Part shown: positions 2,106-4,052 of the stretch, one piece after another | Layout of the letters: each line of letters begins with the position of its first letter | Numbering within the stretch: the first letter of the stretch is position 1 | Origin: a virus | Taxonomy: Duplodnaviria; Heunggongvirae; Uroviricota; Caudoviricetes | Length of the DNA stretch: 21,234 bases | Reading direction: 5' to 3' (one strand) | IMG/VR virus record: IMGVR_UViG_2537562190_000017 | Made by a program: the position numbers and the translations under genes | Notes under the pieces: generated by a model | What the model was told of the DNA's origin: nothing | The model's database searches: none | What the model saw: only the letters and a program-made list of their open reading frames with translations

Positions 2106-4052
2106 TCATGCCGCAGTGTCTGTGCTGTTCACTTCCACCACAATGCTGTCTATCAGTACCGGGTAAGTCGCATTCCTGGTAATGTCTGTCACATGCAGTT
2201 TATCCGCCGCAAATGCACTGACCGGTGACTGCGTCAGCGTGAACGGTGTGCCATCCTGACCATCAATAACCGGCGTCACCTGAAGGCTGTTATTCCCGGC
2301 AAAGCGGAAAGCCAGCGTATGCCATTCGTTATCAAATGCGCCAAAGCTTCCCAGTTTCAGGTTGTTTGTCGCCACTTTCGCATTGTGGTACATCACATTC
2401 AGGTCTTTTGCATCTGTCTGGATGTAGAACGCTGCCAGCAGGTTATTCCCCCCGTCTCCGGTCAGGGCAACGCCCTGTGGCAGTGAAGAGACCGGCCAGT
2501 AAAACGCCATAACATACTGGTTCGCAGCCAGCGCTCCCGAAACCTTAAAGCGGCAGCGAATCTGCCCCCCTTTCTGTAACAGAGCCGCACCGTTGCCCGC
2601 GGCGTACTCCAGCACCCAGCTGCTTTTACCGGCCTCCTTGGTCAGCTTCACTGCCTTACCTCCGGTTCCCTCCGCATCGCTGACCACTTCTGCCCTGCCG
2701 CCACTGGCTGACCATCCCTGTACTTTCAGGCTTCCCTCTGACTCGCTGGCAAGGTAAGAGAGCAGTGTTGTGACGCCTGTGGCTTCTGCACCGGAAGGCG
2801 ATGAAGGGCGCACCTCTGATACTGTCGATGATGCCCCCGCGTTTAGCGCCACTCTTCCCGCATGGCGCAAAATCGCCGTTGCCAGACGGTCGGAAATAAT
2901 CCCACGGCGTGCCCAGGCGCTGAAATGGCTCGCCCTGTCCTGTGACGTCCAGGTGGCTGAGCTGTCACGCCATTTCGAACCGTAATATCCGATACCCGGA
3001 ATGTCCGGGTCTTCTTCCGGTTTGTTCGTCGGCACATTCACCCCGTTCTCATCGGTCATGAACGGTACGAAATGGATATTCTTTTCCGTTTTGTTTTTAT
3101 AGCTGCCGTACACCGTCTGGTACGTGGATTCGTTCTTCTGCTTCCAGAAATACGTCGTATCTCCACATATCCAGGGAACACCGCCAGCAGAGCCACCGAC
3201 GCACTGACCTGCCATATCCGCCAGGTCTGCACGGAATTTATCAACCAGCGCACCAAACTGTGCTGCGTGATTTGCCGGCGTACCGCCAAAATCAAATTCC
3301 CCCTGCATCCACACCACGGCAAACAGCACATTTTTCGGATTCTTCTTCAGTGCTGCTTTTGTTCGACCGATAAGGTCCTTATACAGCGGCTTGTCCACAC
3401 CCCAGCGGGTTGAATTCTCCGAAGCACCACTCGCGTCACTGTATGTGCCATCAGCTCCGGTGGTGAACGCTGAACCACCACGACAGCACGGAACCAGCAG
3501 AATGCCCGCATTCGCCGGTATAAACGGCAGCAGTTTTTTGGCGATATGCAGCCCCTGCCCCACGGTTCCGTACTGCCCCTTTGACAGGTCCGCTTTCGGA
3601 TGGTTAAGGCGGCTCATGTCCTGCACATCATGCAGACAATGGTCCGCCGGAATGATGTCGTTATATTTGCATGCTGCACCGCCCGGTGTCACCGTACTGC
3701 GGCGCGCCAGCTGCTTAATACGCGGGTCCGGACGGTCATATGTCTCCGGCAGCGGAAGACCTTCACCATACGACATGCCGTTTGACTGCCCTGCCAGAAC
3801 CACAACAAAGTAATACTCCGGGTCGCTGGTGGCACTGATTACTGCACCTTCTCCACCTGTCGGCTTCACCACAACAGGTGTGCTCACATCACCTTCTGCG
3901 ACAATCGCCTGAATAAGTGCTGCGCCATCATCCGTATACGAAGAAAACGGCCCACCGTATGGTTGCCATCCTTCACGAATTTTTTGCGCAAGTGCATCAG
4001 CAAGGTCTGACGGCGATGCCGCCCTGACCACATCGTAATGTTTAAATGTCAT
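2106..4052 (-). CDS. nanS-p: NanS-p-type sialate O-acetylesterase (N-terminal DUF1737-like segment, SGNH/SASA esterase core, C-terminal beta-rich domain)
   Basis: 648 aa; GQSN motif in VVVLAGQSNGMSYGEG is typical of SASA-family esterases. ATG at 4052 with GGAGGA SD. Position between Q and S matches the prophage-borne nanS-p genes of Stx-converting phages. Confidence 0.8.
   Translation of the reverse strand: MTFKHYDVVRAASPSDLADALAQKIREGWQPYGGPFSSYTDDGAALIQAIVAEGDVSTPVVVKPTGGEGAVISATSDPEYYFVVVLAGQSNGMSYGEGLPLPETYDRPDPRIKQLARRSTVTPGGAACKYNDIIPADHCLHDVQDMSRLNHPKADLSKGQYGTVGQGLHIAKKLLPFIPANAGILLVPCCRGGSAFTTGADGTYSDASGASENSTRWGVDKPLYKDLIGRTKAALKKNPKNVLFAVVWMQGEFDFGGTPANHAAQFGALVDKFRADLADMAGQCVGGSAGGVPWICGDTTYFWKQKNESTYQTVYGSYKNKTEKNIHFVPFMTDENGVNVPTNKPEEDPDIPGIGYYGSKWRDSSATWTSQDRASHFSAWARRGIISDRLATAILRHAGRVALNAGASSTVSEVRPSSPSGAEATGVTTLLSYLASESEGSLKVQGWSASGGRAEVVSDAEGTGGKAVKLTKEAGKSSWVLEYAAGNGAALLQKGGQIRCRFKVSGALAANQYVMAFYWPVSSLPQGVALTGDGGNNLLAAFYIQTDAKDLNVMYHNAKVATNNLKLGSFGAFDNEWHTLAFRFAGNNSLQVTPVIDGQDGTPFTLTQSPVSAFAADKLHVTDITRNATYPVLIDSIVVEVNSTDTAA

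Follow-up and report, generated by a model that had tools for sequence, protein, structure and literature searches.

What does the 648-residue reading frame in the late region of this lambdoid prophage without Shiga toxin genes (stx) encode, and is its product an enzyme set free at lysis or a part of the virion? The locus lies in IMG/VR virus record IMGVR_UViG_2537562190_000017, the whole 21,234-nt stretch of which was analyzed and is called the window throughout. The coding sequence runs from 2106 to 4052 on the minus strand; it is an intact open reading frame with an ATG start, and the Shine-Dalgarno sequence GGGAGG lies 4 nt 5' of this ATG. An earlier note on this DNA had proposed a NanS-p-type sialate O-acetylesterase of three parts. 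Its coordinates, length and GQSN motif agree with the reading frame and its three-part architecture with the Pfam domains; the strand is added here.

To define the domains, the protein was compared with Pfam, PHROGs and solved structures. Three Pfam families were matched, each above its curated cut-off: DUF1737 (PF08410) at residues 3-53 (E value 1.5e-11; 44.4 bits, cut-off 24), SASA at residues 83-278 (E value 3.6e-11) and DUF6645 at residues 492-610 (E value 9.8e-75). PHROGs assigned the entire protein to phrog_143, a family of unknown function. Among solved structures, PDB 6yp6, which is named NanS-p, matched residues 426-643 (E value 4e-139), with 215 of 218 residues identical (three differences; 98.6%), and PDB 3pt5, the chromosomal NanS (YjhS), matched residues 74-396 (E value 3e-116), with 56% identity over 318 aligned residues. 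Together, the two structures span residues 74-396 and 426-643 of the 648-residue chain.

These matches divide the gene, on the minus strand throughout, into five segments. The DUF1737 domain (residues 1-57; 3882..4052) belongs to an allele class that we call alpha, with the loop GGPFSSYTDDG, and is followed by a Pro/Gly/Val-rich linker (residues 58-82; 3807..3881), in which recombination breakpoints fall in related loci. Block motifs and the 3pt5 match define an SGNH type II (SASA) sialate O-acetylesterase core (residues 83-396; 2865..3806). An interdomain linker that includes RPSSPSG (residues 397-425; 2778..2864) leads to a lectin-like jelly-roll domain (DUF6645; residues 426-643; 2124..2777), delimited by the match to 6yp6.

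A tblastn search of phage genomes matched 352 records, the majority of them Stx-converting phages. The best match was the esterase (yjhS) of the Stx2d phage Stx2_112808 (LC567830), which has 98.6% protein identity and shares the alpha class. Alignment to characterized NanS-p proteins, which the earlier note had called for, gave 92.0% identity each to 933W L0105 (z1466) and phi24B vb_24B_21 (gp84). In this alignment, nearly all differences lie within residues 1-107 and only six positions differ beyond residue 107. The DUF1737 domain and linker (residues 1-110) have only 58% identity with the characterized 933W and phi24B proteins, and, compared with 933W, this part of the window protein is of another allele class and three residues longer. 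The 933W protein and the NanS-p alleles of EDL933 and O104:H4 share the architecture, the place in the late operon and the catalytic blocks of the window protein.

We then located the catalytic blocks. Published work on NanS gives the SGNH blocks as GQSNA, RGGSAF, MQGEFD and R-x-SHFS, and describes catalysis by Ser19 and His301, with a catalytic Asp lacking. All four blocks are found in the window protein (GQSN, 88-91; RGGSAF, 191-196; MQGEFD, 249-254; RASHFS, 373-378), including the Ser nucleophile, Ser90 (codon 3783-3785), and the His base, His376 (codon 2925-2927), and they agree with the blocks published for 3PT5 and for NanS-p. The earlier note had looked for a Ser/His/Asp set; the Ser and the His are present, and the Asp was misplaced as a requirement, because NanS-type enzymes use no catalytic Asp and only the Ser and His can be required. 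Chromosomal NanS has the same SGNH type II blocks and the same Ser/His pair without a catalytic Asp; it differs from the window protein in having neither the DUF1737 nor the lectin-like domain, its 337-residue chain aligning only to residues 74-396. The chromosomal nanS gene adjoins the sialic-acid genes nanC and nanM.

A carbohydrate-binding, lectin-like fold had also been suggested for the C-terminal domain, and this holds in that the domain shares the jelly-roll of the solved phi24B structure 6yp6. The four aromatic residues proposed to bind sugar in phi24B (Y510, Y515, Y540 and F611) are all kept, as Y513, Y518, Y543 and F614. The domain possibly directs the esterase to glycans. Judged by its sequence, then, the feature is an intact copy of the known prophage NanS-p sialate esterase, and the assignment made in the earlier note is borne out by the three-domain architecture, the 92% identity, the catalytic blocks and the position in the late operon.

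The genes around nanS-p, all on the minus strand, are those of a lambdoid late region. From the side of RusA and DUF968, the order is the late antiterminator Q (6175..6870; PF06323), a small open reading frame, an N6/N4 DNA methyltransferase (4556..5614; identified from annotated relatives and a domain match), an STnc100-type small RNA (sRNA), nanS-p, a DUF1378 gene (1791-1970), a DUF826 gene (within 1505-1924), a P21-type holin (within 1212-1502) and a lysozyme (674-1207). The DUF1378 and DUF826 genes are in the same operon downstream of nanS-p, the holin reading frame lies downstream of nanS-p as well, and the lysozyme follows the holin. Thus, nanS-p sits between Q and the lysis genes of a lambdoid prophage, and annotated relatives show the same layout. 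Late-region similarity to the closest relatives (L001 and L002) ends exactly at Q (window 6107-6882), and the window, O157:H7 YB14-1 and the Stx2d phage carry three different Q types amid flanks that are 96-99% identical.

With a probability of roughly 0.9, we read the region as part of a lambdoid prophage that lacks stx and has, in its late operon, an intact nanS-p allele whose product, a sialate 9-O-acetylesterase, would be released at lysis. The sequence identity, domains, catalytic residues and gene context are observed directly in the window. Enzyme activity, Q-dependent expression and release at lysis would be as in the near-identical characterized proteins. By analogy with other lambdoid phages, Q would let RNA polymerase pass upstream terminators, so that nanS-p would be transcribed with the late genes; terminator-like hairpins are present upstream of nanS-p, and phage induction is known from published work to raise nanS-p expression. 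Residues 1-35 contain no hydrophobic stretch and no signal peptide was seen in them, so the protein would leave the cell only upon lysis by holin and lysozyme. Once outside, it would take O-acetyl groups off Neu5,9Ac2 and acetylated mucin glycans by means of the Ser90/His376 pair, an activity that we infer from the very high identity of its core to the characterized 933W enzyme. The freed sialic acid could then be used by surviving lysogens, and part of the protein may remain attached to capsids through DUF1737.

Published reports on these enzymes describe 933W z1466 as an active Neu5,9Ac2 esterase, list seven characterized NanS-p alleles in EDL933, and state that all tested alleles of EDL933 and O104:H4, those of non-Stx prophages included, are active and support growth on Neu5,9Ac2. 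Such substrates bear on another reading, raised as a possibility in a review, in which the esterase acts on bacterial surfaces, removing O-acetyl groups from O-antigen or capsule and thereby aiding adsorption or preventing re-adsorption to lysed cells. Production in the lytic phase only and the lectin-like domain would suit such a role; however, the same review notes that it has no experimental backing, Neu5,9Ac2 and mucin glycans are what the characterized enzymes act on, and the core shares 56% identity with chromosomal NanS. We regard a surface role as improbable.

Is the absence of toxin genes genuine? The earlier statement that no AB5-toxin reading frames exist between Q and S was upheld, since a tblastn search of the whole window with Stx2A and Stx2B returned a best E value of only 0.76, and no stx sequence is present. 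ARAGORN found no tRNA genes in the window, and neither tRNA nor stx remnants were found when sought in the gap between the methylase and nanS-p. A comparison with Stx2_112808 placed the site at which toxin cargo would be expected in this gap: the phage is 97% identical to window 1-4509 and 96% identical to window 4543-6110 (flanks of 4.5 kb and 1.6 kb), and what separates the two flanks is a slot of 33 bp in the window (4510..4542), reaching from the methylase stop codon to the conserved sequence. At this slot, between methylase and sRNA, Stx2_112808 alone of the two holds 1.65 kb with tRNA-Met, tRNA-Arg, tRNA-Arg and stx2AB; its Q also differs from that of the window. Nothing of a toxin gene remains in the slot of the window, which is a clean gap. 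The 933W locus likewise differs from the window, which has neither stx nor tRNA genes upstream of nanS-p.

Among the collected loci, the interval from the methylase stop codon to the sRNA is a variable cargo site (for example in L005, L056, L058, L073, L074, L090 and L091). No cargo is present in the window or in five further loci (507-nt gap). Elsewhere, it takes the form of a gap of about 598 nt without tRNA or stx, of tRNAs only (about 0.8 kb), or of tRNAs with stx2 (2.1-2.5 kb); in further variants, tRNAs accompany a TerB-like protein, or the site is taken up by an AraC-type regulator, in some loci alone and in others together with a TolA-C-like lipoprotein (1.9-4.2 kb).

The 503-nt gap upstream of nanS-p holds the STnc100-family sRNA gene, which is related to PasD (4276..4476, minus strand; Rfam RF02076, 148 bits, cut-off 47) and ends at its 3' side in a hairpin resembling an intrinsic terminator (4309-4286). 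In Stx phages, stx2B and nanS-p are separated by this same sRNA sequence. STnc100 is connected with PasD, a group of sRNAs bordering sialic acid esterase genes, in a 2026 preprint on Pas sRNAs, which also describes the arrangement sRNA-esterase-sRNA-holin-lysozyme.

To determine how common this context is, complete genomes and collected loci were surveyed. Near-full-length copies, covering at least 80% of the gene, were present in 688 of 5,426 complete genomes, and genomes with any nanS-p match had it at a median of three places and a maximum of eight. Of the collected NanS-p loci, 28 had stx and 40 showed none over an upstream stretch of at least 3 kb, in a sample that includes deliberately chosen Stx phages. 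Active NanS-p in non-Stx prophages is described in published work, and in the 2026 Pas sRNA preprint stx adjoins fewer than 3% of chromosomal PasA genes. The nanS-p DNA of the window itself recurs with 100% identity in five complete E. coli genomes of different serotypes, in stx-less prophages; the copy in O157:H7 YB14-1 is WP_000142957.1, in the same stx-less layout. The occurrence of NanS-p without stx, which the earlier note had put forward as its finding, is true of this locus and is neither unusual nor new, given the 688 genomes, the five identical copies and the publications. NanS-p without stx is a common and already documented context, and the finding as first stated matters little: a known accessory enzyme was correctly labeled in a known context. 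There is some value for annotation, because RefSeq names the protein in YB14-1 merely "DUF6645 domain-containing protein."

The identical copies also bear on whether nanS-p is a silent relic that no longer serves any function in a decaying prophage. In favor of this, defective prophages are frequent in E. coli, and the early region of the present prophage contains an IS-type transposase gene. Against it, the reading frame is unbroken and preceded by a strong ribosome-binding site, the five genomes of different serotypes agree completely in its DNA, and Q, holin and lysozyme on either side are likewise intact, all of which makes a relic very unlikely.

The second part of the opening question concerns the N-terminal domain. 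The earlier note had treated the gene as a moron, a label that is now doubtful and may be wrong, because the phi24B orthologue is attached to the capsid via DUF1737 according to a 2026 preprint on this phage. There, gp84 is a major virion protein, among the strongest virion bands; its residues 2-57 (DUF1737) form a hexamer on the central hexons of a T=9 capsid, with Tyr42 as anchor, and cleavage is proposed near SISSP and at the SSP motif before the C-terminal domain. Applied to the window, such findings would make the protein mainly a virion part, with DUF1737 on hexon centers, the esterase and lectin-like domains helping the phage to bind or pass through sialylated mucus, and proteolytic release coming later. 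The source is a single preprint on a T=9 podovirus. In the window, the anchoring loop is GPFSSYTDD (Tyr39, Asp42) as against SALISTAGY (Tyr42) in phi24B, so that Asp42 stands where phi24B has its anchoring Tyr and the Tyr is at 39 instead. At the first proposed cleavage site, DVSTP replaces SISSP, whereas the second SSP motif, between the core and the C-terminal domain, is kept (in RPSSPSG).

We next asked which heads accompany which N-terminal domains. These domains were classified in loci from IMG/VR, phage records and two genomes, and fell into the classes alpha (the window), beta and gamma (933W/phi24B), with a fourth N-terminus that has no DUF1737. Head type was scored for loci whose sequence extended to a downstream terminase or capsid gene; the structural genes fall outside the window. 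In this set of related, non-independent E. coli prophages, alpha accompanied head type B at 13 of 13 and gamma the 933W-type podovirus head at 4 of 4, while beta was found with head type C (HK97-like; 8 loci), head type D (10 loci) and a B-like head (1 locus). Head type B is a lambda-like long-tailed module with a 674-residue protease-scaffold-capsid fusion, as in Stx2_112808. The terminase and portal of head type D have the sizes of lambda gpA and gpB. A one-to-one rule between allele and head was rejected, since beta occurs with types C, D and one B-like head.

The rest of the protein does not follow the head. The core class and the C-terminal class of the window (class 1 in each case) are present with all four head types, and no fewer than five Q types occur upstream of alpha alleles. 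In some beta alleles, the linker is of the alpha type, so that recombination breakpoints fall within it. Simple linkage fits the association of allele and head poorly, as the core and C-terminal parts are nearer to the head genes and yet common to all heads, and it is strained further by the shuffling of the Q genes, which lie 2-3 kb upstream. The same pattern could be explained if the late operon is inherited as a block and the core undergoes gene conversion between co-resident prophages.

Two observations concern the N-terminal domain on its own. In the siphovirus phage vB_EcoS-640R1 (L092, 6986-7189), a stand-alone DUF1737 gene of 67 residues lies just before the holin, at the position of the esterase, which suggests a separate role for this small domain. 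In IMG/VR loci L078 and L080-L084, DUF1737 is replaced by an unrelated N-terminus of about 119 residues without a Pfam match, and these NanS-p relatives have about 78% identity over residues 63-641.

A place for the window protein mainly in the virion is thus argued for by the strong gp84 band and hexon hexamer in phi24B, by the constancy of the alpha and gamma pairings, by core and C-terminal classes shared across head types, by the alpha class behind its several Q types, and by the stand-alone gene before the holin. Against it stand the exchanged loop residues, the pairing of the window allele with a different, lambda-like long-tailed head in place of the T=9 podovirus head, the spread of beta over at least three head types, and the ability of core gene conversion to yield the same pattern. 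On balance, we hold this account to be tentative, and release of an accessory esterase at lysis is the reading that we retain. More generally, NanS-p could conceivably decorate capsids as a modular enzyme in lambdoid phages whose shapes differ, with DUF1737 as an exchangeable adaptor suited to the head type and with mobile esterase and lectin-like domains; this too is a conjecture that we consider doubtful at present. Were the adaptor reading true, the alpha allele would decorate a long-tailed lambda-like head, a second capsid type beyond phi24B. If DUF1737 is a head-specific anchor, this widespread enzyme would count among the accessory structural proteins of phages and be directed at mucus, and this would alter the view of its role in gut colonization by Shiga-toxin-producing and related E. 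coli.

Outside the late region, the IS-type transposase reading frame (9369-10415, plus strand) has rve and HTH_32 domains and lies beside a sok antitoxin RNA (10401-10568, minus strand; RF01794, 100.8 bits). In the closest relative, E. coli UTAK-6, a Hok/Gef gene but no transposase is annotated there, in a match that covers only 85% of window 8000-21234; for this reason, the IS looks like a recent insertion beside a hok/sok module. At 17270-21234 on the plus strand, an 847-residue RecE-like exonuclease with a 3'-5' exoribonuclease domain is followed by excisionase and integrase genes, which end exactly at the window edge. The matching prophage in UTAK-6 adjoins ompW.
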